Assembly: GCA_046160105.1 (NCBI GenBank)
Contig: JBJXGT010000009.1
Span: 27,350 to 91,349 of the forward strand
Length of the DNA: 64,000 nt
DNA from: Gemmatimonadales bacterium
Lineage (GTDB): Bacteria; Gemmatimonadota; Gemmatimonadetes; Gemmatimonadales; GWC2-71-9
Direction of reading: 5' to 3'
Below are positions 28,573 to 50,586 of the stretch, one piece after another; position 1 is the first letter of the stretch; every line of letters starts with the position of its first letter. Below the pieces are notes generated by a model, which saw only the letters and a program-made list of their open reading frames with translations, was not told where the DNA came from and did no database searches. Both the position numbers and the translations under genes were made by a program.

Positions 28573-28608
28573 GTCGGTGACCCGCCCGCCCGGCGGCGAG
28601 ACGGACGG

Positions 28609-30387
28609 CTAGTCGGGCGGGGCGAACAGCGAGTCGTATTCCCGCGTCGCCAGGAGAGCATCCACTCGGGTCGCGATCCGTGTCATCAGCGCCGGATCTG
28701 CCTGGCGGTACTCGGTCCCCACCGAGACGAATCCCGACGAGCCGGATGCGATCGCCGACACGGTGATGACCTTGCCGTCGATCTTCACCCTGCGCTGATA
28801 GCTGCCCGGCTCGTCGTCCAACCGTTCGGCGGCGAACTCCCTAACCAGAACCTCTACCAGCGTGTCGCGGAGCGGCGTCCCGGCCGGCCGGAGGTTGTAG
28901 GAGGCATACTCGCCCGGCTTGCCGACGGTGAGATCGCCGCGGTAGGCGACTGGCACGAACCCCGTCCGCTCGACCAGCCGGTCGGCCCCAGCCGCCCGTC
29001 GCCACTCGAAATGGTGGGCGACCCAGCCGGGTTCGAGGTCGGCATGCTGGTTGTACCGCATCCGCCGCCGGTCGATCGGAATCTGGTATGAAGCATTCGC
29101 GCGGTAGTCCGTCACCCCCAACACCGGCGTCTCCTCCGATCCCCCGTGGGCCAGCCAAACCACGCTCCGCTCATCCGGCGACAGGCCAATCAGCCCGGGG
29201 GTATCGAGGGGGTAGATCCCCTCCGGGTCCTCGAGTGGGTACATGGCTCGGTTCCGGGTGTCGAGGATTCGGTTGCCGAGATCGTACAGGCCGGGCCGGG
29301 AAAACGTCTGATGGTCGATCCAGCCCCGCGCCGTTGTCCGCCGACGGGTCGAACGAAACAGCGCCGCATCGGCCGTGATTAGCTTCGCGTCGCTCAAGCT
29401 GCCGCCGTTGCCGAGGGCGCGGGGGCGGGTGGAGTCGCCCTCGGAGGCGATCAGGTAGAGGTGGTTGCCCGCGGTCTGGGTCAGGAGAGCGGGCGATTCG
29501 CCAGGAAGAACCGCCACGCCGTCGATCTCCCCGTCAACGACGATCGGCTGGTTGCCGATCGCGATCTGGAACGTGGAGCTCGAGGCCAGCGCCTCCGACT
29601 CGGCGGCCTGGAAGAAATAACCCGAGATGGTTGTGACCACGAACGGGCCGATGGTGTCGGTCCGAAGCGGCTCGCTCCGACGAAGGATTCGAAACCGATA
29701 GCGAAATCCATCGGGCAGGGGCGGGCTCCCCGGGCGAGCCCGGGGCAGCCATTCGCTCCAGCGCTGCTGATCTGGGCCGGGGTGGCCAGGTAGCGGCACC
29801 TCGAAACCGGCCAACTGTTGCTCACCGACGCCGAGAAGCAGAACTCGCTTGCTGCGGCTGGTGAACACCGGGGCCGCTCCGGGAACGCGCCAGCGGCCAT
29901 CGGACAGGCGTGCGTCGGCGGTGAAGAGGATCCCGGCTTCGCTCTTCCGCATCACTCCGCTACTGGAGGCGCCCAGTCGCGCGTAGCCGAGTCCGGGGAG
30001 GGTCCGGGGATCCCCGGCACCGGCCGGCCACTCAAGCTCGAAGGTGAGGAATAACTGGTCGCCGTCGATCTCGGGCGGAATGTCGGCCAGGAGCCGGGCG
30101 ACGCCGCCGATCGCGCCGATCGTGCCGAGCAGGATGCCCGAGGCGATCGCCAGGCTCTTGAGAAATCCGGGGTCGGGGCTGCCCGCGGCCAGCCGCGCCG
30201 TGGCCAGTCCGAGAATCGCGCCGACCAGGCCGGCGAGGAGCGCGAGCCCAACGACGAAGTATCCGGCGCCACCCTCGAAAGAGGAGATCCGATACCACTC
30301 GACCGCGAGGCCAGCGACCAGTCCGCCGACGACCAGCCCGACGATCCCGGTCAGGACCGAGACCGCGATCGACGCCGGCCAACTCAC
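28609..30387 (-). CDS. Hypothetical membrane protein (about 4 N-terminal TM helices plus about 470-aa uncharacterised domain)
   Basis: GTG 30387 overlaps the MBL gene stop (GTGA). N-terminus VSWPASIAVSVLTGIVGLVVGGLVAGLAVEWY..., further Gly/Ala-rich helices, then a non-repetitive soluble domain. No family recognised. The upstream 127 codons of the track ORF are a shadow of the MBL gene. Confidence 0.6.
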   Translation of the reverse strand: MSWPASIAVSVLTGIVGLVVGGLVAGLAVEWYRISSFEGGAGYFVVGLALLAGLVGAILGLATARLAAGSPDPGFLKSLAIASGILLGTIGAIGGVARLLADIPPEIDGDQLFLTFELEWPAGAGDPRTLPGLGYARLGASSSGVMRKSEAGILFTADARLSDGRWRVPGAAPVFTSRSKRVLLLGVGEQQLAGFEVPLPGHPGPDQQRWSEWLPRARPGSPPLPDGFRYRFRILRRSEPLRTDTIGPFVVTTISGYFFQAAESEALASSSTFQIAIGNQPIVVDGEIDGVAVLPGESPALLTQTAGNHLYLIASEGDSTRPRALGNGGSLSDAKLITADAALFRSTRRRTTARGWIDHQTFSRPGLYDLGNRILDTRNRAMYPLEDPEGIYPLDTPGLIGLSPDERSVVWLAHGGSEETPVLGVTDYRANASYQIPIDRRRMRYNQHADLEPGWVAHHFEWRRAAGADRLVERTGFVPVAYRGDLTVGKPGEYASYNLRPAGTPLRDTLVEVLVREFAAERLDDEPGSYQRRVKIDGKVITVSAIASGSSGFVSVGTEYRQADPALMTRIATRVDALLATREYDSLFAPPD

Positions 30388-31232
30388 CGCAGATGCCAGA
30401 CGACGCCGTCCCAGTCCTCCGGATCGGCACCGCCCCAGCGAGCCACGGTACCGGCCGCCTCCAGCGCCAGCAGATGGGCCCGGAGCGAGAGAGCGGCCGC
30501 GGGATGAAGGGCGGGGTCGGTATCGTGGTAGATCCGGCCCACCAGCTCGGGAATGCGCTGGGGCCCCGAGCCTAACGCTTCGACCGCCTGGCGGGTGCGA
30601 GCCTCCCGGTGGGCGATGAGCTCGCGGATCCGGTCGTAGGGCGCCGCGATGGCCGGACCGTGCGCCGGGTACGCGACGGCCAGGTTCTCGATCGCGAGGA
30701 GCCGGTCGAGCGAGTCGAGGTAGGCCACCAGGTCGCCCTCGGGCGGCGCAATGATCGAGGTCGACCACCCCATCACCACGTCGCCGGGGAAGAGGGCCCT
30801 TTCCTCCTCCAACACGAACGCGAGGTGATCGGGGAGGTGCCCTGGCGTATGCAGCGCGGTCAGGTGGAATCCGGCCGCCACGATCTGGTCGCCGTCACGT
30901 AACCCCAGGTTGGTGATGAAGCCGGGATGGCTGCCGAAGAATCCGATTGGCGCCCCGACCCGGTTGGCCACCCGCCGGGCCAGCGGCCAGTGATCGGGGT
31001 GGCCGTGGCTGGGAATCACCGCGACGACACGAGCGGCGCCGACCGCCGCCGCGATTCGATCGAGGTGACCGTCGTCGCGATCCTCGCCCGGGTCGAGAAT
31101 GACGACCTCGGTGGTGCCGATCAGATGGGTGTTGGTCCCCGGTCCGGCGAAAAGGCCGGGGTTGTTTTGAGTGATCCGTCGGACCAAGGGAGAGAGCGGG
31201 ACCACCTCGCCGTAGACGATCGGAGCGGTCAC
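30384..31232 (-). CDS. MBL-fold metallo-hydrolase (LACTB2/glyoxalase-II-like)
   Basis: GTG 31232 overlaps the NUDIX stop (GTGA). H-x-H-x-D-H motif (SHGHPDH), HTPGH, and a C-terminal winged-helix-like tail. Confidence 0.85.
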   Translation of the reverse strand: MTAPIVYGEVVPLSPLVRRITQNNPGLFAGPGTNTHLIGTTEVVILDPGEDRDDGHLDRIAAAVGAARVVAVIPSHGHPDHWPLARRVANRVGAPIGFFGSHPGFITNLGLRDGDQIVAAGFHLTALHTPGHLPDHLAFVLEEERALFPGDVVMGWSTSIIAPPEGDLVAYLDSLDRLLAIENLAVAYPAHGPAIAAPYDRIRELIAHREARTRQAVEALGSGPQRIPELVGRIYHDTDPALHPAAALSLRAHLLALEAAGTVARWGGADPEDWDGVVWHLR

Positions 31233-32071
31233 GGCACGAAGAGTCGCTCGAAGGCATCGCGATCGACGCGACGGAGGTCGCTCTCGGCGACGTCGTAGCC
31301 ATCGTCGCCGGGAAGGACGACCCGACCGCGATAGACCTTCGGCTGATTGGCGGGAAGCGGGATGGGCTGGGTGGACGCCCACGCGACGGCCGCGGCGGCG
31401 GTGGGGTGAGGCGCCAGGGCCCGGAGATTCATCAGGGTCGGGAAGATGATCATCCACTCTCGCCGCACGGCCCGTTCGATGGCCTCCGCCGGGGAGACCC
31501 AGGCCGAGTCGGTGAGCTCCCAGTCGTCGTGTCCGGCGATCTGGCCGGCGGGCGCCTCGGTGACGAAGAACCGGGTATCGTAGCGACGGGGCTCGCCGAC
31601 CGGGGTGATCCAATGGGACCAGTATCCGATCCGGTCGGTGGCGAGCCGAAGATCCTCGGCGCTGACGATGTCGGCGAGGCCGAGCGTGCCGGCGTTGAGG
31701 TCGTCGCGGTAGCGCCGATACTTGGCGTCCACCGAGGGGTCGCCGAAATCGAGCAGCGCTCCGGTGCGGTCGTAGGCGAGCAAGACGCCGGCCTCTTCGA
31801 AACACTCCCGAACCGCGGCGACGAAATGGGCCAGACCACCGCCGGTGAGGCCGAGGCGCCGGCTCGCGTTCGGTTCGTCCAGGCCGGCACAGCGCACCGG
31901 GTCGAAGGCGTCGCCTGGGTCGACCCGCCCGCCCGGGAAGACGTACGCGCCACCCACGAACCCCGATTCGAGATGGCGTCGCTCCATGAATACTTCGACG
32001 CCGGACGGGGCGTCTCGCACCAAGAGGATGGTCGAGGCGAGCCGGAGCTCGGGGTCAGGCGTGACGGTCAT
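31229..32071 (-). CDS. NUDIX hydrolase with C-terminal extension
   Basis: FPGGRVDPGD...AAVRECFEEAGVLL (Nudix box with a long insert), then ...RRYDTRFFVTEAP...WVSPAEA.... Confidence 0.8.
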   Translation of the reverse strand: MTVTPDPELRLASTILLVRDAPSGVEVFMERRHLESGFVGGAYVFPGGRVDPGDAFDPVRCAGLDEPNASRRLGLTGGGLAHFVAAVRECFEEAGVLLAYDRTGALLDFGDPSVDAKYRRYRDDLNAGTLGLADIVSAEDLRLATDRIGYWSHWITPVGEPRRYDTRFFVTEAPAGQIAGHDDWELTDSAWVSPAEAIERAVRREWMIIFPTLMNLRALAPHPTAAAAVAWASTQPIPLPANQPKVYRGRVVLPGDDGYDVAESDLRRVDRDAFERLFVP

Positions 32072-32156
32072 GGTGGCGATGCAAAGCTACCTCCGGGATT
32101 CGACGCGCCGCGACCCTCGCCTCCCGGCCGCGCGGCGCTCGGCCCGCCATGCCTGG

Positions 32157-34004
32157 TTAGCGCCGCTTCGGGCCGAAGGCGAGCAGCACGTTTCCCGGCA
32201 TCTGTCCAAAGAGGGCATACCCGGAGCTGACGAACACCATCCCGCCGGCGACCGTGGGACCGGGTCCGTCGATGGCGCCGCCCCGGGCCGTGACTCCATT
32301 GACCGTGGGAAACGTCTGGGCGGTATCGAACGCCCAGAGCAGGCGACCGTCGTCGCTGGCGTAGGCCCGCAGCCAGCCGTCGAGCCCGCCCACCAACACC
32401 GCGCCGGGGATCACCACCGGGGCGGCGGAGTAGGCCGCGAAGCAGCCCATCCGGCCGCTGCAGGGTGGGGCGGGCTGGTGCCAGATCGGTGCCCCGGTGG
32501 CGAGGTCGAGTGCATGGAGGCCGGGCCGGGCCGGTCCCCCCGAATCGGTCGGGGTGAGGCGATCGGAGACCGGGGCGAATACCCGCCCCAACCCCGCGGC
32601 CACCCCCCAATGGATTCCGCCTAACGCCCCGCCGCGGCCGACTCGGGTTTGCCACAGAACGGCGCCCCGGCGGTCGGGGTCGAGGGCGTGGACCACCCCG
32701 GCCTTCTGCCCGGCGACCAGAATCTCTCGACCGTCGGCGAGGGTGACGAGCAACGGGGCCTGGCCGAAGTCGATGTCCCGGCCATGGGGGGTCGGGCAGT
32801 TGGCCCCCTTTTGGACTCCGCACGCCATGTTCCACGCGTCGCGTTCGGTGGCCTGAAACGACCAGGCGAGGGCACCAGTCGCCAGATCGAGGGCGAGGAT
32901 GGCGTCACTGGTCGTGGTGGTGGGGTGGCTGTAGTTCTCGCCGGTGCCGACATAGAGGAGGCCGCGCCGCGGGTCGACGGTGGGGCTCGACCACACCGGC
33001 GCGCCGGCCGGCCCGAAGATCGGTTGGCCGGTCCGGCCGGTGTCCGTTTGAGTGGCCTCCGCCGCGATGACCCGGTGGCGCCAACGGACCGCCCCGGTCG
33101 CGAGGTCGAGGGCCACCACCGCGCCAGACGAGGTGCAGCATCGGTAGCCGGGATTCGCCGCCGCCACCACCTCCATCGAGGACAGCGGGACGAAGACCCG
33201 GCCGCCATGAATCACCGGCGAACCGGTGACGTTGTTGGCGGGGTGGTCGGTGACAGCGGTCTTCCAGCGGAGCTGGCCGGTGGCCAAATCGAGCGCCACG
33301 ACCGTGCCGCGGAAGTCCGCCGCCACCGCGAGGCGCTGGCCATTGTCGTTCGGCGGACCGATGGCGACGACCCCCTTCACCGCGGCGTCACCTTCGTAGG
33401 TCCAGCGGATGCAGCCGGTCGCGGCGTCGAGCGCGGAGACCTCGCCGTACTGGCCCCCGACGATCAGCAGATCGCCCGCCACGGTCGGTTGGGACCGAGT
33501 CACCGTGCCGTCCGGGAACCCGAACGCCCAACGGAGCTCGAGCTCGGGCACCTCGGTGGCGGTGAGGCCCGCCTGCTCCGCGGTCCGAAATCCGGTGCCA
33601 CGGGGCGACCCGGACCAGGCGGTCCAGTCGGTGGGCGCCGGGGCTGGCGATTTCCCGCCGCGCTGACTGCAGTACGCGCTGGCCGGCATCACGGCCGGCG
33701 TGAGCTTCCGGCGGGTCAGGAACTCGGCCACCGCGACGCGATCCTCGTCCGGCAGCGCGGCCGCGACCTCTCGCATCGACCCCTTGGTAAGGGCCGCGTA
33801 GATCGCCCGGGGCGTCATCGCCGAGAGCGACGCGACGAGGGGCGCCCGGACGGAACCGTCGCCCTCGTGGCAACTGGCGCAGTGCGCTCGATAGACGACG
33901 GGCCCCCGCGGTTGGGCCGCGGCGGGCGCCGCCAGGCCTAGGGAGACCGTGACGATCGGCAGCCACCTGGTTGCGGGGAAGCGCGCTCGCGAGGATCGAG
34001 TCAT
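32157..34004 (-). CDS. PQQ-type beta-propeller dehydrogenase with N-terminal cytochrome c domain (quinohaemoprotein, PVA-dehydrogenase-like)
   Basis: Signal MTRSSRARFPATRWLPIVTVSLGLAAPAAAQ. Haem motif CASCH. Repeated Trp-containing propeller blades (LRWKT, VRWRH, LAWSF, VLWQT, PIWHQ, LLWAF). Confidence 0.75.
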   Translation of the reverse strand: MTRSSRARFPATRWLPIVTVSLGLAAPAAAQPRGPVVYRAHCASCHEGDGSVRAPLVASLSAMTPRAIYAALTKGSMREVAAALPDEDRVAVAEFLTRRKLTPAVMPASAYCSQRGGKSPAPAPTDWTAWSGSPRGTGFRTAEQAGLTATEVPELELRWAFGFPDGTVTRSQPTVAGDLLIVGGQYGEVSALDAATGCIRWTYEGDAAVKGVVAIGPPNDNGQRLAVAADFRGTVVALDLATGQLRWKTAVTDHPANNVTGSPVIHGGRVFVPLSSMEVVAAANPGYRCCTSSGAVVALDLATGAVRWRHRVIAAEATQTDTGRTGQPIFGPAGAPVWSSPTVDPRRGLLYVGTGENYSHPTTTTSDAILALDLATGALAWSFQATERDAWNMACGVQKGANCPTPHGRDIDFGQAPLLVTLADGREILVAGQKAGVVHALDPDRRGAVLWQTRVGRGGALGGIHWGVAAGLGRVFAPVSDRLTPTDSGGPARPGLHALDLATGAPIWHQPAPPCSGRMGCFAAYSAAPVVIPGAVLVGGLDGWLRAYASDDGRLLWAFDTAQTFPTVNGVTARGGAIDGPGPTVAGGMVFVSSGYALFGQMPGNVLLAFGPKRR

Positions 34005-34135
34005 CAGGGCGGCTCGGGTTCGAGGGAGGCGATCGGACCAGATGGAAGCTAACTCTACAACTCCCCGCCGGCCTCCCCCAACGCGTCCCCTTGACGGGTC
34101 TACCGGTCGGGAGTGAAGGTTCCCCAACGGTAACC

Positions 34136-34987
34136 ATGACCCCCGACTCGCCCGACCTGCCCGAGCCCTCGCGGCTGACCCGGCTCGGGTACAGCGGTCC
34201 GTTGCTCGAGGTCGATGCCCGCCAATGGCAGGGCGACCACGTCGCGTCGCGTACCGAGCGGGTCATCGAAGAGATCCCGGTGGTGCTGGTCTACAATCAG
34301 ATCCCCCACGTCGTCATGATGGCCACCCCCTCCGACCTCGAGGATTTCGCCCTGGGCTTCAGCATCACCGAGGAACTGGTTCGCTCGCCGGCGGATCTCT
34401 TGGGTGTCGAGACCGTGGCCTACAGCCGCGGCATCGAGCTGCAGATCCGGGTCCCCGCCGAGTGTCAGGCCGTGATCGAGACGCGGACTCGGCGGCTGAC
34501 GGGCCGGACCGGCTGCGGGATTTGCGGGAGCGACAGTATCGACGCGGTGCTCAAGTCGGCCCGCCGGGTCGAACCGGGGCAACCGGTGGCGCCGGCGGCG
34601 ATCCGGCGGGCCCTGCGATCGATCGGACCGGGTCAACTTCTCAACGAGGCGTCTGGCGCGGTGCACGCGGCGGCATGGGTGGGTTTGGACGGCTCGATCG
34701 GCATGGTTCGCGAGGACGTTGGCCGGCACAACGCCCTCGACAAACTGGTCGGCGGGTGTCTCGCCGCCGCGGTGGATCCTCGGGGCGGGTTCGTGGTGGT
34801 CACCAGCCGGGCGAGCTTCGAGATGGTCCAGAAGGCCACCGTGCTCGGCGCCTCTCTTCTCGTGGCGATGTCGGGGCCGACCGCGTTGGCCGTTCGGCTC
34901 GCCGACGAGGCCGGCGTCTGCCTGGTCGGCTTCGCTCGGGAGGGCCGGTTCACCGCCTACACCCACCCCGAGCGGATCCTCGGCTGA
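34136..34987 (+). CDS. fdhD: Formate dehydrogenase accessory sulfurtransferase FdhD
   Basis: Segments ...EIPVVLVYN...MATPSDLEDFALGF...GRTGCGICG...DVGRHNALDKL...VVTSRASFEMVQKA.... Convergent with the FDH operon (9-nt gap). Confidence 0.9.
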   Translation: MTPDSPDLPEPSRLTRLGYSGPLLEVDARQWQGDHVASRTERVIEEIPVVLVYNQIPHVVMMATPSDLEDFALGFSITEELVRSPADLLGVETVAYSRGIELQIRVPAECQAVIETRTRRLTGRTGCGICGSDSIDAVLKSARRVEPGQPVAPAAIRRALRSIGPGQLLNEASGAVHAAAWVGLDGSIGMVREDVGRHNALDKLVGGCLAAAVDPRGGFVVVTSRASFEMVQKATVLGASLLVAMSGPTALAVRLADEAGVCLVGFAREGRFTAYTHPERILG

Positions 34988-34996
34988 AGCGGCGGG

Positions 34997-35943
34997 CTAT
35001 CCGGCCTTCTTGGGGGGCCGGTTCTGGACGTACTGCCAGCCAAACCGACCCTTGATGCAGAGATTGCCTAACGTAACGTCGTGGTCGAGCGGCGAGGTGA
35101 CCTTGACGATGTCGTTGTCCTGGACGTGCAGCTCCAGGTTGCAGCCGACGCCGCAGTAGGGGCAGACCGTTTGGGTCACCGTCTGGCGCGACTCGTCCCA
35201 GGTGCCCGTCGCCCGACGATCGTGCTCCGTCTTGAACATCAGCGCGCCGGTGGGACACACGGCGATGCAGTTGCCGCAATAGACGCAGGCGGATGACGGC
35301 AGCTCGACCGCGAACTCCGTCGAGATCCTGGCGTCGAACCCCCGTCCCGCGACGGTCAGGGCGAAGGTGTTCTGGTGGTCGGTGCCGCAGGCTTGGACGC
35401 ATTTGTAGCAGAGGATGCACTTCCCGTAGCTCCGGACGTACAACTCGTTGTCGAGCTTGGTGGGTTGCGCCACCGTCGCCCGGAACCCGGGCTCGACGGC
35501 TTGGTGGTGGCCGGGTTGCAACCCATCCCGGTATCCGGCGGGCGCCGGCGGGGCCGGTGGCCCGTATCGTTCGGGCCGGGCCGAGTATTCTCCCATCCAC
35601 CGGTCCACGTCGGGCGTGGTCGAGAGGTCGACCGACGAGCCGAGGAACTCGAGCACCATCCGTCGACTGTGGTTGACCCGGTCGGAGTTGGTCTTGACTA
35701 CCATCCCCGGCTCGACCTTGCGGGAGCAGGAAGGGACCAGGACTCGGGATCCCTCGACCTCTACCACGCAGACCCGGCAGACGTTGACGGGGTGCAGGGT
35801 GTCGAGGTAGCAGAGGGTCGGAATCTCGGTGCCAAGCGCTCGGCACGCGTCGAGGATCGTGGCACCCTCGGTGGCCTCGACCGGGGCGCCGTCGATCGTC
35901 AGGCTCACGGTGCGCCGAGGCGGCGCAAGCTGCACCATCGTGG

Positions 35944-35947
<4 letters not shown>
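34997..35947 (-). CDS. Fe-S subunit equal to the N-terminal cluster domain of FDH alpha/NuoG (2Fe-2S, 4Fe-4S clusters, Mo-enzyme Fe4S4 domain), stand-alone 316 aa
   Basis: ATG 35947 overlaps the upstream stop (ATGA). N-terminus MTTMVQLAPPRRTVSLTIDG. Motifs CYLD...CRVCVVEV...SC (2Fe-2S), CILCYKCVQAC and CVYCGNCIAVCP (ferredoxin type), and CPYCGVGCNLELHV...LCIKGRFGW (Mo-oxidoreductase Fe4S4 domain). It then stops. Confidence 0.85.
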
Positions 35948-37827
<1,880 letters not shown>

Positions 37828-37840
37828 GGGCGTCCGATCG

Positions 37841-39757
37841 TTAGGCGGTCACGGCGGCGGCCGCGGCGATCGGCTCGATCCTCACGGCGCACGCCTTGAA
37901 CTCGGCGGTGCCCGACTTCGGGTCGACCGCGTCGATGGTCAGGACGTTGGTCTTGACCTGGTCCTGGAAGTGGAGGGTCATGAAAACGAGCCCCGCCCGG
38001 AGCGACCGATCGATGCGGATCGGAGCGACCACCGACCCCCGTCGCGAGGTGACCCGGACCGGGTCGCCGTCGGCCACCCCGAGGCGGAGGGCGTCCTCCG
38101 GCGACATGTCGACCGACTCCCCCCGGCGGAGGGGCGACGTGTACCCGCTGGTCTGGACGCCGGTATTGTACGACTCCAGTCGCCGGCCGGTGGTGAGCTG
38201 GAACGGGTACTCGGCGTCCGGCATTTCGACCGGGGGATCGTGCTCCACCACGCTGAACGGCGCGGCGGCGCCGCCGCGGGGTTGCTCCCAGAGCCGGGCG
38301 TGGAGGAACTGCTCGCCGGGATGTTGCTCATCGGGGCAGGGCCATCGGAGGCCGCCTTCCTTGTCGAGGCGGGCATAGCTCATTCCGGCCACCATCGGGG
38401 CCAGCGACCGAACCTCGTTCCAGACCTCCTCGGCGGATGGGTTTCCCCAATCGTGTCCCATCCGGCGGGCGATCTCCGCGATGATCCAGCGATCATCGCG
38501 GGCGTCGAACGGAGGCTCCAGGGCCTTGCGAACCCGCTGGACCCGCCGCTCGCTGTTGGTCACGGTCCCTTCCGACTCGCACCAACTGGACGACGCGGGC
38601 AACACCACCGTGGCGAGCTCCGCGGTCCGGGTCAGGAAGATGTCCTGGACGACCAGGTGATCGAGGCCGGTCAACAGGCGCTCGGTCCGGTGCTGGTCGG
38701 CCTCGGATTGGGCGGGATTCTCGCCGATCGCGTAGACCGCCCGGATCTCCCCGTGTGCCATCCCTTCGAACATCTGCGACAGGTTGCGCCCGTACTTCGG
38801 CTCGAGCGTCGTGCCCCAGGCCCGTTCGAACTTGGCGCGGACCGCGGCATCCTTGGTCCAGTCCTGGAAACCCGCCAGCCGATTCGGAATGGCCCCCATG
38901 TCCCCGCCGCCTTGGACGTTGTTCTGACCCCGAAGCGGGTTGAGTCCCGAGCCGTAGCGCCCGACGTGGCCGGTGAGGAGCGCCAGGTTGATCAGGCTGA
39001 GGACGTTGTCGACCGCATTGTGATGCTCGGTGATGCCTAACGTCCAGCAGATGACCGCCCGATCGGCTCGGGCGTAAGCCAGCGCCGCCCGCTCGATGAC
39101 GTCGGCCGGCACCCCGGTGGTGCGCTCGGCGTAGTCGAGGGTGTACCGCTCGACCGCGGCGCGATACTCGGCGAACCCCTCGGTCGCGTTGGCGATGAAG
39201 GCCTCATTGGCGAGGCCGGCGTGGATGATGACCCGGGCCATCGCGTTGGCCAAGGCAATGTCGGTGCCCACCTGGAGGCCGAGCCACTCGTCGGCCCATT
39301 GGGCGGTCGCGGTCCGGCGCGGGTCCATCGCGTAGACCTTGGCCCCGCGACGGATCGCTTTGAGCACGTGGTGGAAGAAGATCGGGTGATTTTCCCGGGC
39401 GTTCGCGCCCCAGAGGAAGACGACGTCGGTCTCTTCCACTTCCTGATACGAGCTGGTGCCGCCACCGGCACCGAACACCGTCGCCAGACCGACGACGCTA
39501 GGGGCGTGTCACGTACGGTTGCAGCTGTCGACGTTGTGGTTGCCGAACACCACCCGGGTCAGCTTGGAGGCCAGGAAGTTCATTTCGTTGCTGGCCTTCG
39601 AGCAGCTCATGGTCGCCAGGGCATTGGCACCGTGGGCCGACTTGGCGGCGGCGAATCCGGCGGCGGCACGGTCGAGCGCCTCGTCCCAGCTGGCCGGTCT
39701 GAGCGCACCGTTGTCGCGCACCATCGGTTGGGTCAACCGATTGAGCGGCTTGGACAT
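37841..39757 (-). CDS. fdhA: Formate dehydrogenase catalytic (Mo/W-bisPGD) subunit lacking the N-terminal Fe-S domain; contains in-frame TGA (selenocysteine) at 39509-39511
   Basis: Join of track ORFs 39509..39817 and 37841..39478 (same frame, only the TGA between them). ATG 39757 preceded by GGAGG. Read-through gives ...FGNHNVDSCNRT-U-HAPSVVGLATVFGAGGGTS...DVVFLWGANARENHPIF..., collinear with E. coli FdhF ...NNVDCCARV-U-HGPSVAGL.... Confidence 0.8.
39480..39496 (-). promoter_or_regulatory. SECIS-like hairpin downstream of the UGA codon
   Basis: mRNA reads UGA CAC GCC CCU AGC GUC GUC GGU CUG GCG ACG. GUCGUC/GGCGAC pair (6 bp, one G-U) around a GGUCU loop. The GGU CUG codons are in the same register after the UGA as the GGUC loop of the E. 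coli fdhF SECIS. Confidence 0.6.
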
Positions 39758-39792
39758 ACGACCTCCGATTCTGAGTGTTGCCCCCCAAAGAT

Positions 39793-39920
39793 GCCGCCGG
39801 GTTACCCGAGGGCGCAAGCGGAGCGGGTCGGGCGATTCGCTCCGTCGTCAGCGCTCGGCACCGGCCCTCGGGTTGAACCGCGCCGCCTGGGGAAGCGATC
39901 AACACCGGTCCCCCGGCGGC
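39793..39920 (-). promoter_or_regulatory. Structured 5' leader of the FDH operon (candidate riboswitch, class unassigned)
   Basis: Nested perfect inverted repeats. gccgccggg (39793-39801) pairs with cccggcggc (39912-39920). cccgagggc (39805-39813) pairs with gccctcggg (39864-39872). Inner hairpin gcggagcg (39818-39825) pairs with cgctccgt (38-45 of 398xx). An AT-rich ATATAC box lies just upstream (39921-39930 region). Confidence 0.35.
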
Positions 39921-39967
39921 CGTATATTTGGGGCGTCCTTTCCGACCCCGTGCCCAGGAACCACCTC

Positions 39968-42949
39968 ATGCCTCTCCTTTTTGCCGCCCCAGTCGTTCGG
40001 GCGGTGTTGCTCGGGCTCGTCACGACGAGTGCCGTCGTGGTCCGCCCGCTCGGGGCCCAACAGACCACCACCGCGACCCGCGACCCCAGCCAGAAGCAGG
40101 ATCCGACCTTCACCAAGAGCTACCTCGAGTGGCTACCGAATCGGCGCTTGGGCAGTCCGTTGGTCGACCACCTGCCCTTGGTCGATGGGATTCCCACCCC
40201 GAGGGACGTGCTCGGTTACCACATCGGGACGCCGCGCCGGCTCACCTACTACGCCGATCAACTCCGCTACTACCGGGCGCTGGCCGCGGCGACCCCGCGG
40301 GTCAAGGTGGAGACCATCGGTCGATCCGACGAGGGGCGGGAACTGGTGGTGGTTTGGGTGTCGTCGGACGCGAACATCGCGGCGATGGCCGCCAATCGGC
40401 AGAACCTGGCCAAGATCGCCGACCCACGCGGACGGAGCGACGCCGAGATCGCCGAGCTGATTCGGACGACCAAGCCCCACTATCACCTGATGGGCGGGCT
40501 CCATAGCGGCGAGACCGGTCCCTCTGAAATGCTGATGGAGCTCATCTATCGGCTGGCGACCGAGACCTCACCGGTGATCGCCCAGATTCGCAACAATCTC
40601 TACGTCTCGGTAACGCCGGTCGCCGATGCCGACGGCCGAGACCGGAACGTCGATTGGTTCCACCGCAATTTGGAGCTGGGCCTCGCCAATCCGCCGGGGC
40701 CGCCTCCGCCGCCGCCTCCGCGCGACAGCACCCGGGGAACCCAGGGACTGCCGCCAAGCCGGTTCATCCCGCCGGTGCCCTATTGGGGTCGCTACGCCTA
40801 CCACGACAACAACCGGGACATCAATCTCGTCCTGGTCCAGATGCGCGCCATCGCGGATTGGTATTTCACCGCCTATCCGCCGATCATGCACGATCTCCAT
40901 GAGTCACTTCCGTTGCTCTACACCTACAGTGGAGCGGCCCCGCAGAATCCCAATCTCGATCCGATCCTGTTCGCCGAGCTGCCCTGGTTCGCCAACTGGG
41001 AGATGGCCCAGATGACGAAGTACGGGATGCCCGGGGTGTACACCCACGCGTTCATGGACGGATGGTCGCCGGGATACCTGGGGTCGATTTCCTACAATCA
41101 CAACGGCCTGATGAAGATGTACGAGACCCAATCGGGCCGGGACCTCGATACCGCCACCGCGAAGCGCGACACGACCCGCGCCAAGCCGGACTCGAGCCGC
41201 GCCCGACCCGACTCGGCCCGGGGCCGAGCCGATTCCACCCGCGCCCGAACCGACTCGACCGCGCGGCCAGCGGCGGCAACGCCGGCCACGGCCCAGGCGG
41301 CACCTGCCGGCGCGGCGGCCCGGGGACCTGGCGCGATCCCGACCGGTCGCGGGGGGGGCCAGGATCGCGAGTGGTATCGAGGGATTCCGATCGGCGCGGA
41401 GGACTCCGCCAAGTTCACTCGGCGGGCCAACGCGAACTACATGCAGACCGGCGTGCTTTCCGCCCTCCAGCTCGCCTCGATGTTTCCTGCTACCCTGCTG
41501 GAGAACTTCGTCGTCAAGACCAGAAACTCGATCGAGGAGGGCCGGACCAAGGCGCCGCACGGGTTCGTGATTCCCGTGCAGCGCGACATGACGCGGGCCG
41601 CTGAGCTGGTCAACATCCTCCGCACCCAGCGGATCGAGGTCGGGGTCGCGACCAAGGCGTTCAAGATCGACACCGTGAGCTACCCGGCCGGCTCCTACGT
41701 CATCAAGCGCGACCAGCCCTATGGGCGCCTGGCGAAGAATCTCCTCGAGCGGCAGCAATATCCCGACGCTCGCCTCAACACCTACGACGACAGCGGCTGG
41801 ACGATGGGGCTGGCGATGATGGTCGACGTGGTAGAGGTGGCGGATTCGTCGATCCTCAAGGTCGCCACCACGCCGGTGAGCAAGGCTGCAGTGGTCGGTC
41901 GGATTGTCGGGAACGGCACGGCCGGCCTGGCGATCGCCCACCAGGGGTCGACCAACATGATCACTTTCCGGCACCGCCTCAAGCAGGTCGCGATGCGGGT
42001 GGCCGAGAAGGGCTTCACCGCCGAAGGCGTCGAGTTCCCGGCCGGGTCGTTCGTCATCGCCGATCCGTCGGCGGCGGCCCGGGCGGCGGCGGCGGAACTC
42101 GGCCTCAACGGGGCGGCGCTTTCGTCGCTGCCTTCGGTCCCGATGCACGATGCCGACCTGCCTCGAATCGGGATCTACTCGCAATGGACCGGAACCCAGA
42201 ACCTCGGGTGGTACCGGCTCACCCTCGACAAGTTCGGGGTGCCCTACGAGCTGTTCTACAAGGAGCAGATCGTCCTTGGCAATCTGCGGTCGAAGTACGA
42301 CGTCATTCTCACCGCCGAGCAGAACCTGGGCCGGGCCAACGTGCTCCAGAAACCGAACGAGAAGCCGGTACCCTATCAAAGGTCGGACAAGTACCAGTTT
42401 CTCGGGATGTACGGCGAGAGCGCTGATATCACCGGAGGGTTCGGGCAACCCGGCGTTGACGCCTTCGCCGCCTTCCTCGAGGCGGGCGGCACCCTGATCG
42501 CGGTCGGCGACGCCGCTCGCTTGCCGATCGAATTCGGGTTGGCCGGTACCGTCGACAAGGTGACCGTGCCCGGGTTGAGCGCCCAGCGGCCGTTGGTGCA
42601 AGGGGAGATCACCCGGCCCGAGCATCCGGTGTTCTATGGGTATCCGAACAAGCTGATCCCGATCAAGTACGTCGGTGGACAGCCATTCAAGGTCGGGGTG
42701 GCCGATGAGGGCAACGTGCTGGCCCGTTATGTGGGAGGGGCCGCGTCGGTGCTTTCGGGGTTGATGGTCGGGGCGGACTCGCTTCGGTTCCGGCCGTTCG
42801 CCGTCGACGTGCCGCGGGCCTATCGAGGGCAGGGCCGAGTGATTCTCTTCGCCAACAACCCGATCTATCGGTGGCAGAATCACGGGGAGTTCAACATGAT
42901 CTTCAACGCGTTGCTCAACTGGAACGACGTCGTCGCCAAACCGGAATGA
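39968..42949 (+). CDS. Secreted M14-family metallocarboxypeptidase-like protein (993 aa)
   Basis: ATG 39968 with signal MPLLFAAPVVRAVLLGLVTTSAVVVRPLGAQ. Zn motif H-x-x-E (GGLHSGETGPSEML). Large C-terminal extension. The upstream 249 codons of the track ORF are a shadow of the FDH gene. Confidence 0.8.
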   Translation: MPLLFAAPVVRAVLLGLVTTSAVVVRPLGAQQTTTATRDPSQKQDPTFTKSYLEWLPNRRLGSPLVDHLPLVDGIPTPRDVLGYHIGTPRRLTYYADQLRYYRALAAATPRVKVETIGRSDEGRELVVVWVSSDANIAAMAANRQNLAKIADPRGRSDAEIAELIRTTKPHYHLMGGLHSGETGPSEMLMELIYRLATETSPVIAQIRNNLYVSVTPVADADGRDRNVDWFHRNLELGLANPPGPPPPPPPRDSTRGTQGLPPSRFIPPVPYWGRYAYHDNNRDINLVLVQMRAIADWYFTAYPPIMHDLHESLPLLYTYSGAAPQNPNLDPILFAELPWFANWEMAQMTKYGMPGVYTHAFMDGWSPGYLGSISYNHNGLMKMYETQSGRDLDTATAKRDTTRAKPDSSRARPDSARGRADSTRARTDSTARPAAATPATAQAAPAGAAARGPGAIPTGRGGGQDREWYRGIPIGAEDSAKFTRRANANYMQTGVLSALQLASMFPATLLENFVVKTRNSIEEGRTKAPHGFVIPVQRDMTRAAELVNILRTQRIEVGVATKAFKIDTVSYPAGSYVIKRDQPYGRLAKNLLERQQYPDARLNTYDDSGWTMGLAMMVDVVEVADSSILKVATTPVSKAAVVGRIVGNGTAGLAIAHQGSTNMITFRHRLKQVAMRVAEKGFTAEGVEFPAGSFVIADPSAAARAAAAELGLNGAALSSLPSVPMHDADLPRIGIYSQWTGTQNLGWYRLTLDKFGVPYELFYKEQIVLGNLRSKYDVILTAEQNLGRANVLQKPNEKPVPYQRSDKYQFLGMYGESADITGGFGQPGVDAFAAFLEAGGTLIAVGDAARLPIEFGLAGTVDKVTVPGLSAQRPLVQGEITRPEHPVFYGYPNKLIPIKYVGGQPFKVGVADEGNVLARYVGGAASVLSGLMVGADSLRFRPFAVDVPRAYRGQGRVILFANNPIYRWQNHGEFNMIFNALLNWNDVVAKPE
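41174..41257 (+). repeat. Four imperfect 21-nt (7-aa) tandem coding repeats inside the M14 gene
   Basis: Translated units are TRAKPDS / SRARPDS / ARGRADS / TRARTDS. An Ala/Pro/Gly low-complexity tract follows (ARPAAATPATAQAAPAGAAARGPGAIPTGRGGGQ). Confidence 0.7.
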
Positions 42950-42962
42950 GAGGGAGGTCCTG

Positions 42963-43499
42963 ATGCGCTATGGATGGATGGTGGTCGGGGTGACCATGGC
43001 AGGCGCCGGAGCGTCCGCCGCGCGTGCCCAAGCGGCGCCCAGCACGGCCGGCGGGTTCGCCGCGGAGATCATGCTGCAGTTCAACGAGTCGATGAACAAG
43101 TTCGTGGCACTGGCCGAGGCGATGCCCGCCGACAAGTACGGCTGGAGCCCCGCGCCCGGCGTCATGACGGTTGCGAAGGTGTACGCCCACGTGGCCCGGT
43201 ACAACTATCTCTACCCGGCCACGAGTCTCGGGGTGGCGGCTCCCGCCGGCCAGGACGCCGACGCCGCCGAGGACCTGGCCGCCAAGGCCCAACTGGTGGC
43301 GCGGCTCAAGGAGTCCCGCGACCACATCAAGTCGGTGGTCGCCGGGCTTCGCGATCCGGGCCAGGAGACGGCCCAATACGGTCGCAAGCTGCCTCAGTGG
43401 TCGGTCTTGCTGCAGCTCGTGGCCCACATGAACGAGCACCTCGGCCAGTCGATCGCCTATGCCCGGATGAACGGGATCGTGCCGCCCTGGTCGCGCTGA
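42963..43499 (+). CDS. DinB-family protein (secreted)
   Basis: ATG preceded by GGGAGG. Signal MRYGWMVVGVTMAGAGASAARAQA. Segments ...VYAHVARYNY...LLQLVAHMNEHLGQSIAYARMNG. Confidence 0.8.
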   Translation: MRYGWMVVGVTMAGAGASAARAQAAPSTAGGFAAEIMLQFNESMNKFVALAEAMPADKYGWSPAPGVMTVAKVYAHVARYNYLYPATSLGVAAPAGQDADAAEDLAAKAQLVARLKESRDHIKSVVAGLRDPGQETAQYGRKLPQWSVLLQLVAHMNEHLGQSIAYARMNGIVPPWSR

Positions 43500-43505
43500 T
43501 CGGCG

Positions 43506-45557
43506 TCAGGGGACCTTTTCGTCGGTGAACTCGACGGTGGCCCGGGGGCCATTGCCGTCGGTTCGGACTCGGTAGACGAATCGGAGGTTCGGCGTGCCGG
43601 GTCGCCGAACCGTCCGGGTGGTGGTCAGGTCGATGACTTGATCGTAGGGTGGCTCCTTCTTCAGGGCGACTTGCCACTCGGTAACCTCACTCATGCTCCC
43701 CCCGGGAATCTCGTGATCGGACGTGGCGGCCGCTCGGTACGTCACGGTTCTGGCCGCCAAGTCGGTTTCGATCCAATACCGGTCGTCGCGACGATTGGGC
43801 CCAGGGGCGGGCGGCGGTGGTGCCGGGGGAAAGCGTGGCTCCACTCGGGGGCCGACAAGCGGGGGAACAATCGGTAGGGTGATCGACGACGCACCGCCGC
43901 CGGGGACCACGATGTGAATGTCGTTCTCGGCCGGCTGTCGGTTCGGCCAGTTCGACGGCCAGTCGCTCGACGCGATCGTGACCCGAATTCGATGGCCACG
44001 GTGGAAGCGGTAGGCGACGTTCTGGAGGGTGACTTGGTAGCGGTAGACCCGTCCCGGCTCGATCGGCGAGGGACCGACGAACCGCCAGTCCTCGGGCCGA
44101 CGGGGATTGAGGTTCGACTCGCGATAGGACGAGTTGAGCCACCCGCGAGTCACCAGGTCGGACCGTCCTTCGGGCGCCACGTCGGACAGCTTGATCGTGA
44201 AGTCCGTGTTGGACGCCGTCGACGCGGCATGGAAGCTGATCTCCGGCATACCGGTGACCTCGACGTCCTCGGCGAGCGGAGCGGTGGTGAAGGTCAGTGA
44301 CTCGGCTTCATCGACCCGCTGATCGGGCAGCGAGAGGTAATCGGTGTAGGCGGCGTCGAACCAGGTCCCATAGGGTCCCGCCGCGCTGCCCACCCACGGC
44401 CGGTATTGGTACCGGCGGGGCGCGCCGCTGTCGGGCGGGGTCAGGGCCAGGTCGCCGGCGGACGTGAGGAAGTATCGGGTCGGCCGGGTCCGCTCGATCG
44501 GCCAGTCGTCCTCGAATCGCCAGCGATTCTCTCGCATTACGAACACGGCCACCGGCGGTTCCTCGACGATCCCGGTCTCGACGCCCTTCAGGAACTGATC
44601 GAACCAGGCCACCATCAGGGCCCTGAAGTCGAGCGCGGGCCCCGGCCCGAACCCACCATGGGTCCAGGGGCCGACGATCAACTTCTGGGGAACCCGCTTC
44701 GCCTTCAGCACCAGGTAGTTCTGGTATACCTCGTCGTGGTTCCGGCCGTGGTCGAAGTAGTTGCCGATCTGGAGGGTCGGCACCGCGAACGAGGGGTACT
44801 TGCTGCGAAGATCCTTCTCCTGCCAGTAGCCGTCGTAGGCGGCGTGCTCCCACTGCGGCTGGAAGAAAGCCCGCCAACCGTTGAGGTCGGCGCGCCGTTT
44901 CCAGCGATCGACATCGAGGACCTTCCCACCCTTGCCATCGTCGTACACCGGACCGCGCAGCATGGTGTAGAGCACGTTGCTCGCCCCGTGCCAGACGTAC
45001 GGGTGATTGGTCCGTACCCCGCCCGGATACCAGTGATCGCCGAAGAAGTTGGCATAGGCGCTGTTGATCGCGATCGCCTTGAGGTGCGGCGGTCCGAGGG
45101 CGGCGACCCGAGTGGCGTTGATCGCCCCGAAGGAGATGCCCCAGAGACCGACCTGGCCGTTCGACCACGACTGGCGGGCGACCCACTCGACCAGATCGTA
45201 CCCGTCGCGAAAGGACTGAGCGTCGAAGTAGTCGGCCATGGTGCCCTCGGACGTCCCGGTGCCGCGCCCCTCGGCGAAGACGGCGACATAGCCGCGCTCG
45301 GCGAAGTACGAATCAGGCTCCTTGCCGTAAGGGATGTACGACACGACCACCGGAAATCGGCCTGGGCTCTTCGGCCGCACGATGTTGGCGACGAGGTGGA
45401 CCCCATCGCGCATCGGGACTTTGACCTCGTAGTCGGTGACCGTGGCGTGGGTCGGTTGGGAAAGGTTGCGGTACGGTCCGCTCGGCTGGGCCGAGGCGGT
45501 CTCCGCGGCCAACCCGAGAATCAGGATTGACCGGGCAAAGCGAATCCGCGAATTCAT
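43506..45557 (-). CDS. CocE/NonD-family hydrolase (S15 X-Pro dipeptidyl-peptidase-like), secreted
   Basis: Signal MNSRIRFARSILILGLAAETASAQ. Segments ...YEVKVPMRDGVHLVANIVRP... and G-x-S-x-G (LWGISFGA). C-terminal beta-sandwich region. Confidence 0.85.
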   Translation of the reverse strand: MNSRIRFARSILILGLAAETASAQPSGPYRNLSQPTHATVTDYEVKVPMRDGVHLVANIVRPKSPGRFPVVVSYIPYGKEPDSYFAERGYVAVFAEGRGTGTSEGTMADYFDAQSFRDGYDLVEWVARQSWSNGQVGLWGISFGAINATRVAALGPPHLKAIAINSAYANFFGDHWYPGGVRTNHPYVWHGASNVLYTMLRGPVYDDGKGGKVLDVDRWKRRADLNGWRAFFQPQWEHAAYDGYWQEKDLRSKYPSFAVPTLQIGNYFDHGRNHDEVYQNYLVLKAKRVPQKLIVGPWTHGGFGPGPALDFRALMVAWFDQFLKGVETGIVEEPPVAVFVMRENRWRFEDDWPIERTRPTRYFLTSAGDLALTPPDSGAPRRYQYRPWVGSAAGPYGTWFDAAYTDYLSLPDQRVDEAESLTFTTAPLAEDVEVTGMPEISFHAASTASNTDFTIKLSDVAPEGRSDLVTRGWLNSSYRESNLNPRRPEDWRFVGPSPIEPGRVYRYQVTLQNVAYRFHRGHRIRVTIASSDWPSNWPNRQPAENDIHIVVPGGGASSITLPIVPPLVGPRVEPRFPPAPPPPAPGPNRRDDRYWIETDLAARTVTYRAAATSDHEIPGGSMSEVTEWQVALKKEPPYDQVIDLTTTRTVRRPGTPNLRFVYRVRTDGNGPRATVEFTDEKVP

Positions 45558-45582
45558 TCTGGGCTCCCCTGGGTGGCGCCGG

Positions 45583-47418
45583 TCAGTATGCCTCGACCGC
45601 GCCGTTGTACAGATCGCGGGTCGCGCCCCGAAGCCGGCCGGTCTTGGGGTCGCGTTGGATGCTGATCCAGGAGCCGAACGAGGATCGGATCTGTTGTTTC
45701 GGCTGGAGGATGGCGTGCCCGCCGCGGGCGTTCAGCGCCGCGACGACGGCCTCTGAGAAGTCCTCGGTCGGCAGGACCTGCGGGCCTAGAAGCCCGCTCC
45801 CGGAAAACTGCGGGGCGTGGAGGGCGGCGTCGGGGTCGCGGCCGTAATCGAGCACGTTGACCAGCACCGCCAGAGTGTTCTCGAGCAGGCCCGCCCCGAT
45901 ACTGCTGCCGGCCAACACCCAGCGTCCGTCCTTCATGACGATGATCGGGTTGGTGGGATCAGGGAGCCGGACTCCGGGACCGGCTCGCCGGATCAGATCC
46001 TGCTGGAAGCAGGCCGCGTCGGGAATCGTGATCCCGCCGACGGTGATCCCGGTGCCTCCGAAAAGCACCGTGTTGATCGTGTGGGTCAGCGCGGCCACGT
46101 TGCCCTCGGCGTCGGTGGCCACCACCGCGTCGGAGTGGCCCCCACCGCCGCTGGTCTGCCTCAACGCGGCCTGGACTCGGGCCTGGGCCTCGGCCGCCTC
46201 CTTCTCTACCGCGCGCCACGACGTCGGGTTCTTCAGTTGACTCCACCAGAACGCCGCCGTCTCCCGCTTGAGGCGGCCGGCCGGCGAGAGATCCTGGGTC
46301 GGGAACTTGGTCTGGGCCCAGTCGGCGGGCACCCCGACGCCGCCGCCCGGCGGGCCGTCGAGAAACTGAATGTGGCTCGCTTCGATGAACGGATAGAGGG
46401 TCTCGGCCGACTCCCAGTACTTCGGCCCGTTCGGCAGGTCGACGTGCTCGAGCACCTGCATCGCCTCGAGCGTCGCGGTGGCGCCGAAGGTGGGCCAGGC
46501 GGCGCCAAGGAGCTGGTAGCCGCGGTAGGTCGCCCGAATCGGCTCGCTCCACTGGGCCCGATACTGGGCAAGGTCTTCGAGCGTCATCTTCCCGCCGTCG
46601 GCCTGGACGGCGGCGACGAGCTGGCGGGCCCATTCCCCCCGATAGATGTGGTCGGCGCCGCGCGATGCCACCTGGCGGAGGGTCGCCGCGAGGGCGGGCT
46701 GGCGGAACAGGTCGCCGGGCTGGTAAGGGGTACCGCCGCTCTTGAGGAAGACCGCCCCAGTGGCCGGGAGGCGTTTGAAGAGGTCTTTCCGATAGGCGAA
46801 GGCCCCGGCCAGGATGCCGCTCACCTTGAAGCCGCTGTCGGCGAGAAAGATGGCCGGAGCGAACAGCTTCTCGAACGGCAGCCGACCAAACCGCCGATGA
46901 GCCGCTTCCACCCCGGCGAAGAACCCCGGGACCAAGGCGGTGCGGCCGCTGGGCTGGTAGGGGATCATCCCGGTGGGACCGAGGCAGGCCGGGATGGTGG
47001 CGGGGTCGCGTTCTCCGGCGACGGTGTTGAATCCGGCATTGAGGGAGTGCACCGAGTTCGTCGCCGCGTCGTAGTAGATGAGATTGAGGAAGCCGGCGTA
47101 GCTCACCCACGAACCCCCGGCGAGGGCGATCTGGGCGAGGGCCGTGGTGATCGCCGCGTCGATGGCGTTGCCGCCTTGGCGGAGGGTCTCCCGTCCCGCT
47201 CGCACCGCGAAGGCGCCGGTGGTTCCGGTGACCATGGCCGAATCGCCCTCGCCAAGGCCCTTCGCCTTGCCGATCTCGGAGGTCAGGGCGAGATAGCGGT
47301 CCAGTTCCCCGGCGGGCCAGGTGCCCGGGGAGAGATCGACCGGCGGCTTGCCCGCGCACCCCGCGGCGGCGACAAGGGCGGCGACAACCGAGGCACGGTG
47401 AAGGGCGGTGTTCGACAC
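45583..47418 (-). CDS. ggt: Gamma-glutamyltransferase-family protein (lipoprotein)
   Basis: GTG start. Lipobox VAALVAAAGC. Segments ...GGNAIDAAITTALAQ... and the autoprocessing region ...DAEGNVAALTHTINTVLFGG.... Confidence 0.85.
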   Translation of the reverse strand: MSNTALHRASVVAALVAAAGCAGKPPVDLSPGTWPAGELDRYLALTSEIGKAKGLGEGDSAMVTGTTGAFAVRAGRETLRQGGNAIDAAITTALAQIALAGGSWVSYAGFLNLIYYDAATNSVHSLNAGFNTVAGERDPATIPACLGPTGMIPYQPSGRTALVPGFFAGVEAAHRRFGRLPFEKLFAPAIFLADSGFKVSGILAGAFAYRKDLFKRLPATGAVFLKSGGTPYQPGDLFRQPALAATLRQVASRGADHIYRGEWARQLVAAVQADGGKMTLEDLAQYRAQWSEPIRATYRGYQLLGAAWPTFGATATLEAMQVLEHVDLPNGPKYWESAETLYPFIEASHIQFLDGPPGGGVGVPADWAQTKFPTQDLSPAGRLKRETAAFWWSQLKNPTSWRAVEKEAAEAQARVQAALRQTSGGGGHSDAVVATDAEGNVAALTHTINTVLFGGTGITVGGITIPDAACFQQDLIRRAGPGVRLPDPTNPIIVMKDGRWVLAGSSIGAGLLENTLAVLVNVLDYGRDPDAALHAPQFSGSGLLGPQVLPTEDFSEAVVAALNARGGHAILQPKQQIRSSFGSWISIQRDPKTGRLRGATRDLYNGAVEAY

Positions 47419-47538
47419 GGCAGTGATCCAGATCGGGGGTGGCTCGAAAGTACCCCTTGATCCGTGAAATGGGAGGGTGTCCCGATTCGTGGGACCTGGA
47501 TCCCGGGTCTCCCGGGGTCGCCCAGGCGGAGTTGGGCC

Positions 47539-48108: not shown

Positions 48109-48124
48109 CGCCGGTCTCGCCGCC

Positions 48125-50539: not shown

Positions 50540-50586
50540 CGGAGAGGCACTGAGCAATCTCGAACCCAGACCAATAACACGGGAGC

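Follow-up and report, generated by a model that had tools for sequence, protein, structure and literature searches.

The window analysed here is a stretch of 64,000 nucleotides (nt) from contig JBJXGT010000009.1 of a Gemmatimonadales bacterium. Its minus strand carries a formate dehydrogenase (FDH) operon in which the gene for the catalytic part of the alpha subunit contains an in-frame UGA (Table 1). The sequence-only reading of this DNA had proposed that two open reading frames (ORFs), 39509..39817 and 37841..39478, belong to a single frame with no further stop between them, and this was seen both in the ORF list and in the translation. Besides the TGA at 39511..39509, the frame from 39997 to 37841 holds no stop before the TAA at 37841. 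The true start of the gene is likely ATG 39757, which has GGAGG ahead of it. Counted from this ATG, the joined read-through product has the 638 residues originally claimed, namely 82 amino acids (aa), the residue encoded by the UGA and a further 555 aa. The minus strand reads ...AAC CGT ACG TGA CAC GCC CCT AGC GTC GTC GGT CTG GCG ACG... at this site, and the one-frame translation 39997 -> 37841 gives the peptide flanks ...FGNHNVDSCNRT-TGA-HAPSVVGLATVFGAGGG. With selenocysteine (Sec, U) at the UGA, the predicted peptide of the read-through product is ...SCNRT-U-HAPSVVGLATVFGAGGGTSSYQEVEETDVVFLWGANAR. A global reassignment of TGA was ruled out. TGA is the most frequent ordinary stop in the window, terminating 17 of 32 likely genes, and the code is therefore not reassigned.

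Table 1. Features of the formate dehydrogenase locus in the window, with the evidence for each
Feature	Coordinates	Strand	Evidence or remarks
Catalytic part of formate dehydrogenase alpha subunit, with Mo/W-bis(pyranopterin guanine dinucleotide) (bisPGD)	37841..39757	-	Pfam, TIGR01591, PDB matches
In-frame UGA, codon 83, predicted to be read as selenocysteine	39509..39511	-	Alignment with FdhF U140; TGA in 79/79 loci; flank dN/dS < 1
Candidate selenocysteine insertion sequence (SECIS) hairpin, GUCGUC-GGUCU-GGCGAC	39480..39496	-	nt 16-32 from the U of the UGA; apical GGUC at nt 22-25
Shine-Dalgarno-like GGAGG	39762..39766	-	Ends 4 nt 5' of ATG 39757; read from the sequence
NuoE-NuoF fusion, 627 aa (diaphorase module)	35944..37827	-	Pfam, NCBIfam NuoF and NuoE, PDB; start codon uncertain
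Fe-S part of alpha subunit, 316 aa	34997..35947	-	Pfam Fer2_4, Fer4, Molybdop_Fe4S4; TIGR01591; FdsA alignment
fdhD, accessory sulfurtransferase	34136..34987	+	TIGR00129 fdhD_narQ, 197 bits (cut-off 140.9)

Scored with Cys in place of U, the 638-aa protein reaches 671.3 bits against the NCBIfam model TIGR01591 (Fdh-alpha, cut-off 666.25), with profile positions 52-672 matched. Pfam assigns to it Molybdopterin and Molydop_binding only; Molybdop_Fe4S4, the domain of the FS0 cluster, is absent. Models of the FdoG/FdnG type stay far under their cut-offs (NF041513, 169.6 versus 1400 bits; TIGR01553, 204 versus 814 bits). Identity with Escherichia coli FdhF is 40.8% over 633 aligned columns. In the alignment to the fdhF gene, the catalytic residues U140, H141 and R333 of E. 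coli fall on U83, H84 and R276 of the window protein, which bears out the active-site correspondence that had been proposed. The top matches among solved structures are FdhF of the Thermoanaerobacter kivui hydrogen-dependent CO2 reductase (HDCR), archaeal FdhA, E. coli FdhH, Methylobacterium extorquens Fdh1A and Rhodobacter capsulatus FdsA. Each of them aligns starting just past its own Fe4S4 domain, from residue ~60 in FdhF-type chains and from residue 307 in FdsA. This homology and the adjacent fdhD gene support the assignment of the 638-aa protein as a putative formate dehydrogenase catalytic subunit with formate/CO2 activity.

A scan of species-representative genomes yielded 80 related loci at 69-85% protein identity, of which 79 span the UGA site. 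These relatives were recovered from metagenome-assembled genomes (MAGs) in four phyla. Gemmatimonadota supply the majority and the closest of them, and the other carriers are Gaiellales, Thermoleophilia and other Actinomycetota, Limnocylindrales and other Chloroflexota, and Acidobacteriota. TGA stands at the same codon in 79/79 covering loci, in the context CNRT-TGA-HAPSV. Purifying selection acts on both sides of the UGA, in one shared frame. Relative to the window sequence, the ratio of nonsynonymous to synonymous substitution rates (dN/dS) is 0.14-0.57 upstream (60 codons) and 0.08-0.34 downstream (69 codons), and synonymous sites vary on either side. The expectation that gene callers would report fragments here was correct: the best 120 matches in the protein database are all post-UGA pieces of 539-556 aa, covering 84-85% of the query. 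The enzyme family is systematically mis-called by gene callers, which split it into pieces of 82-102 aa and ~545 aa. Some of these best 120 database fragments are labelled 'formate dehydrogenase major subunit' or 'YjgC'.

Just 3' of the UGA and inside the coding sequence, the mRNA can form a stem-loop that matches the position of an fdhF-type SECIS (~11 nt). The sequence-only reading had described this hairpin, GUCGUC-GGUCU-GGCGAC, as starting 15 nt after the UGA. The hairpin is present, but its stem begins 12 nt past the UGA, at nt 16 counted from the U, and pairs nt 16-21 with nt 27-32, with a C-G extension to nt 15-33. The register assigned to its GGUC was correct, as this motif occupies the same positions from the U of the UGA in the window and in E. 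coli fdhF. In the E. coli element, G23 and U24 are the contacts of SelB.

Codons +5 to +9 (GUC, GUC/GCC, GGU, CUG, GCG) are free of synonymous variation in 80 distinct sequences, which puts the entropy of five degenerate codons in a row at zero. In the same 80 sequences, His +1 is always CAC, and the codons nearby for Ala, Pro, Thr, Val and Gly reach entropies of 1.1-1.8 bits. The hairpin glycine codon is GGU in 80/80 sequences; elsewhere in the genes GGU is a minority codon, and GGC and GGG dominate. Across 37 aligned sequences the six stem pairs are formed in 100% of cells, and the substitutions found in the stem (U-G to C-G or U-A, G-C to G-U, U-A to U-G) all keep the pairing. This stem also appears in the RNAalifold consensus and in the centroid fold.

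A natural control for this constraint is given by Cys-type homologs. Metagenome contigs were scanned for the same motif with TGY instead of TGA, and 50 Cys-type loci (L084-L133) were found. Their proteins carry DSCNRT-C-HAPSVAGL, share 62-69% identity with the window protein and come from loci with the same gene order. When unique sequences were compared, the wobble entropy of codons +5 to +9 was 0 bits in the Sec type and 0.85-1.48 bits in the Cys type. All six stem pairs were possible in 39/39 Sec-type but only 1/43 Cys-type sequences, and GGTC at nt 22-25 was found in 39/39 and 4/43, respectively. Because the constraint is present with TGA and lost with TGY, it follows the UGA and not the peptide. 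Taken together, the TGA shared by all covering loci, the zero codon entropy and the free variation of the Cys type go well past what chance would produce. In a rough neighbour-joining tree the Sec-type and Cys-type proteins form two sister clades within the split family described below, with unsplit proteins of ~900 aa as outgroups. One Cys-type locus, L099, has an apparent frameshift shortly after the motif.

Several results weigh against a hairpin-directed insertion of Sec at this UGA. No compensatory double substitutions were found in the 37 aligned sequences because the hairpin is too conserved, and the case for it rests on the synonymous-site constraint and the Cys-type control, not on covariation. 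The folding energy equals that of shuffled sequence (z = 0.06, at 68% GC), so that folding of the region upholds the stem noted earlier in its centroid and consensus but not in its energy. The minimum free energy fold of the window sequence favours a register shifted by 3 nt, with a 10-bp stem and a GUCUGG loop at 39474-39499 on the minus strand. U17, which is bulged in the E. coli element, is predicted to be paired with A31 here, and the consensus stem is free of bulges. Rfam gives no family at gathering score over the window, and on 39400..39560 no SECIS model was found at E <= 10, the sole match being a chance one to mascRNA (E = 6.8). Searches of the 64-kb window with E. coli and Chloroflexota SelA, SelB and SelD (tblastn) and with ARAGORN found no selA, selB, selD or tRNA-Sec. 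In the Gemmatimonadota and Actinomycetota relatives, the 10 kb flanking the gene on each side likewise gave neither a sel gene nor tRNA-Sec. Only ~20 kb per relative was covered, so the absence of sel genes from these flanks carries little weight. As a functional fold, the shifted register was rejected. Because it relies on the variable third base of a Thr codon, only 88% of the family's cells pair in it, compared with 100% in the noted register. The position, the invariant codons and the Cys-type control support the hairpin as a probable fdhF-type SECIS, and its predicted geometry is unusually close to that of the E. coli fdhF element.

In Chloroflexota the orthologous gene lies close to a Sec machinery. 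In ten loci (L061, L063, L064, L069, L070, L072, L075, L077, L078 and L079) ARAGORN finds tRNA-Sec at most 10 kb upstream of it, and tblastn with the E. coli proteins finds selA, selB and selD in all ten. The cluster is compact, at ~0.2-9.9 kb of each locus, with selD on one strand and tRNA-Sec, selA and selB on the other. In L070 (5568-6665) and L077 (2387-3620) selA, and in L070 also selB, matches its E. coli counterpart in two or more broken pieces, which suggests frameshifts or assembly errors in long-read MAGs. For Gemmatimonadota, the invariant SelB-type loop in roughly 50 species is indirect evidence that SelB acts in this phylum, and the Sec machinery would then be encoded elsewhere in the genome from which the window derives.

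We consider it very probable that the UGA is decoded as selenocysteine, which would serve as the Mo/W ligand in a formate dehydrogenase catalytic subunit, and that the hairpin directs this decoding. An alternative is that the UGA-C is read through without Sec machinery in Gemmatimonadota, by insertion of near-cognate Trp, Cys or Arg, with the hairpin acting as a generic stimulator. Such read-through would agree with the lack of visible Sec genes in the window and in the flanks of any Gemmatimonadota locus, which, given the ~20 kb covered per relative, weighs little against the machinery. It would also agree with the literature on selenocysteine and selenoproteins, including selenoproteome surveys and reviews, in which no statement on Gemmatimonadota was found among the searchable papers. 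However, all Gemmatimonadota sequences keep the SelB-contacting GGUC loop as far from the UGA as E. coli does, and the same hairpin accompanies the selABCD-linked genes in Chloroflexota. Moreover, tolerance of Cys at this site would be expected to lead to TGY replacing TGA, as in the sister clade. Read-through of this kind is therefore very unlikely.

Gene callers predict two genes in all relatives, and an in-frame GTG is present at 39478, 10 codons past the UGA. This leads to the question whether two real genes could lie here, one for an 82-aa peptide ending at the UGA and one for a 545-aa protein starting at the GTG and lacking a Sec or Cys ligand. Yet no stretch of the protein is more conserved than the ten codons that separate the UGA from the GTG (HAPSVVGLAT), and the catalytic His is among them. 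The lengths of 539-556 aa show that the predicted fragments of the relatives start at different points, without a conserved start codon. As established for FdhH, catalysis requires the Sec/Cys metal ligand and His141, and a protein lacking them would be inactive. Two separate genes are thus extremely improbable. That the TGA is a nonsense mutation in a pseudogene, or an assembly error for TGC or TGT in a Cys-type enzyme, has in its favour the existence of Cys-type homologs with the same DSCNRT-C-HAPS motif, but is effectively refuted by the TGA at the same codon in all 79 independent assemblies from four phyla, the purifying selection on both flanks, the separation of the Sec-type from the Cys-type clade in the rough tree, and the hairpin-specific synonymous constraint that goes with TGA and is absent with TGY.

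The missing Fe4S4 domain of the catalytic protein is found in the same operon. The gene downstream of the molybdenum cofactor (Moco) gene encodes a NuoE-NuoF fusion with a 2Fe-2S thioredoxin-like domain, an FMN/NADH site, an SLBB domain and a 4Fe-4S domain. Its PDB matches are NuoF, HoxF, HydB, FdsB and M. extorquens Fdh1B. The NuoE/NuoF-type partner named in the sequence-only reading is hence confirmed by Pfam, by the NCBIfam models and by the PDB matches, and nuoEF lies directly downstream of the Moco gene in at least 60 relatives. The ATG of the third gene overlaps the nuoEF stop (ATGA). Its product, the Fe-S protein, has a NuoG-like 2Fe-2S domain, two 4Fe-4S ferredoxin motifs and, at the C terminus, Molybdop_Fe4S4 (FS0). 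Residues 260-310 of this protein correspond to TIGR01591 positions 1-51, and together with the Moco protein it covers the model fully. Residues 13-309 of the Fe-S protein align with residues 24-305 of R. capsulatus FdsA, and residues 6-627 of the Moco protein with residues 307-931. Because the two proteins are collinear with FdsA, they correspond to an FdsA-type alpha subunit cut exactly at the boundary between the Fe4S4 and Moco parts, with the C-terminal half encoded first. The order of the genes is Moco/Sec part, NuoE-NuoF fusion and Fe-S part, and not the usual nuoE-nuoF-fdsA. As these alignments indicate, the FdsA-type alpha subunit is both split and permuted, a point that the sequence-only reading missed.

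This arrangement is a stable one. The order of Moco, NuoEF and Fe-S genes is held in every Sec- and Cys-type locus that extends far enough, and the split is kept in at least 60 Sec-type and at least 20 Cys-type loci. In Chloroflexota, 1.2-5.5 kb lie between the Moco gene and the nuoEF and Fe-S genes (L079, and also L061, L064, L069, L070, L072 and L077), and these inserts past the Moco gene hold unrelated genes on the opposite strand. In L079 (11900-17445), the opposite-strand genes of the insert encode a methyltransferase, a DUF5317 protein and an HD-domain protein. A search of the literature found no description of a split FDH among the searchable papers, which form an incomplete collection.

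The fdhD gene is convergent with the operon. Its ORF opens at 33971, and the likely start is ATG 34136. Within 26367..50859, Pfam detected no genes for molybdate/tungstate transport or Moco biosynthesis beside the operon, and the surrounding genes encode peptidases, a dehydrogenase and DinB. Two unrelated genes flank the locus. One is divergent (39968-42949, plus strand) and encodes a 993-aa M14 zinc carboxypeptidase-like protein with an apparent signal peptide, and the other (32157-34127, minus strand) encodes a pyrroloquinoline quinone (PQQ) beta-propeller dehydrogenase with an N-terminal cytochrome c domain. Three long minus-strand ORFs, 28609-30768, 34100-34966 and 33388-34266, have no Pfam match. 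The latter two, which overlap fdhD or the PQQ gene, probably represent shadow ORFs in GC-rich sequence, and the first, of 719 aa, failed the GC3/GC2 (G+C content at third and second codon positions) coding filter.

The following mechanism is proposed for the locus. The ribosome would stall at the weak UGA-C stop, and, by analogy with E. coli, SelB carrying Sec-tRNA(Sec) would bind the hairpin 12 nt downstream and deliver its cargo to the stalled ribosome. The resulting 638-aa product would contain the Sec83-His84 pair and Arg276 but lack an Fe4S4 domain. The 316-aa protein, whose gene lies two genes downstream, would supply this domain and the NuoG-like Fe-S clusters in trans, and the three operon proteins presumably assemble into one complex. 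The NuoE-NuoF fusion would then pass electrons from formate to NAD+, or catalyse the reverse reaction, NAD being the electron partner suggested by this module. FdhD may sulfurate the cofactor.

The mechanism of Sec insertion envisaged here is the textbook one and is unchanged, and the protein would be a known kind of selenoprotein with an architectural twist. Less ordinary are the lineage, the Sec ligand in an FdsA/Fdh1-like enzyme linked to NuoEF, and the conserved split of the alpha subunit. It is possible, although we put this forward only tentatively, that these loci represent an uncharacterised class of soluble NuoEF-linked FDHs with a permanently split alpha subunit, comprising a Sec clade in four phyla and a Cys-type sister clade. 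If this is true, and if the split is undescribed, this would be the first FDH with its FS0 cluster supplied in trans. It would also document Sec decoding in Gemmatimonadota, a phylum that is unmentioned in the searchable selenoprotein surveys. Because gene callers cut the enzyme, metabolic reconstructions of soil Gemmatimonadota, Gaiellales/Thermoleophilia and Limnocylindrales miss or mislabel an FDH and a Sec trait. The matched Sec and Cys clades, which share one architecture, offer a clean natural experiment on the coding cost of the SECIS and on Sec/Cys exchange, and a NuoEF-linked Sec-FDH with FS0 in trans would give studies of CO2/formate catalysis an unusual enzyme to work on.

Several features of the locus have precedents. 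FdhA is the most widespread bacterial selenoprotein and often the only one of a genome (PMC13188914), and the use of Sec is common among aerobes (PMC5029168). The splitting of an FDH annotation at its UGA is a familiar artefact (PMC13449736). In mycobacteria, the single Sec-FDH, of the FDH-O/FdoG type, has a SECIS immediately 3' of the UGA and a clustered selC-selA-selB, and has been annotated as two ORFs (fdhA and fdoG) because of the UGA (PMC13449736). The mycobacterial enzyme is, however, of the FdoG/FdnG type with ~1064 aa, and the window protein falls far under the cut-offs of the corresponding models.

E. coli FdhH (fdhF, PDB 1AA6/1FDO) resembles the window enzyme in that the UGA is followed by C in both and a hairpin begins 11-12 nt after it. 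The SECIS of the window differs from that of E. coli in its stem sequence, in the pairing of U17 and in a loop closed by C-G to the 5 nt GGUCU. FdhH is a single chain of 715 aa with its own N-terminal Fe4S4 domain, whereas in the window the Fe4S4 domain resides on a separate protein. FdhH also works in formate hydrogenlyase, whereas the partner of the window enzyme is the NuoE-NuoF module.

By score, the best structure match is FdhF of the T. kivui HDCR (7QV7 chain S, 539 bits), which carries Cys at the aligned position, where the window protein has Sec. HDCR and the FDHs of acetogens belong to strict anaerobes, and the Fe4S4 domain remains part of their catalytic subunits, unlike in the window protein. 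Sec-FDHs of acetogens include Moorella thermoacetica FdhAB, Clostridium autoethanogenum Fdh-Hyt and Gottschalkia acidurici FdhF2-HylABC, which are linked to NAD(P) or ferredoxin. The Sec-FDHs of acetogens and syntrophs work with NuoE/F/G-like modules, and the pairing of Sec with a NuoEF-type diaphorase is therefore not unprecedented. The earlier statement that this combination is less usual applies to the characterised aerobic Fds enzymes, but not beyond them.

A likeness in overall architecture is seen with the NAD-dependent FdsABG of R. capsulatus and Cupriavidus necator (6TG9, 6VW7) and with the tungsten enzyme Fdh1AB of M. extorquens (7E5Z/7VW6). In alignments, the Fe-S and Moco proteins follow FdsA end to end. 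FdsB and Fdh1B are matched by the NuoE-NuoF fusion, M. extorquens Fdh1B being itself a NuoE-NuoF fusion, and fdhD is adjacent as in these systems. In FdsABG and Fdh1AB, however, the metal ligand is Cys and the alpha subunit is unsplit, whereas the window gene has a predicted Sec ligand and an alpha subunit divided at the Fe4S4/Moco boundary, with its C-terminal half first.

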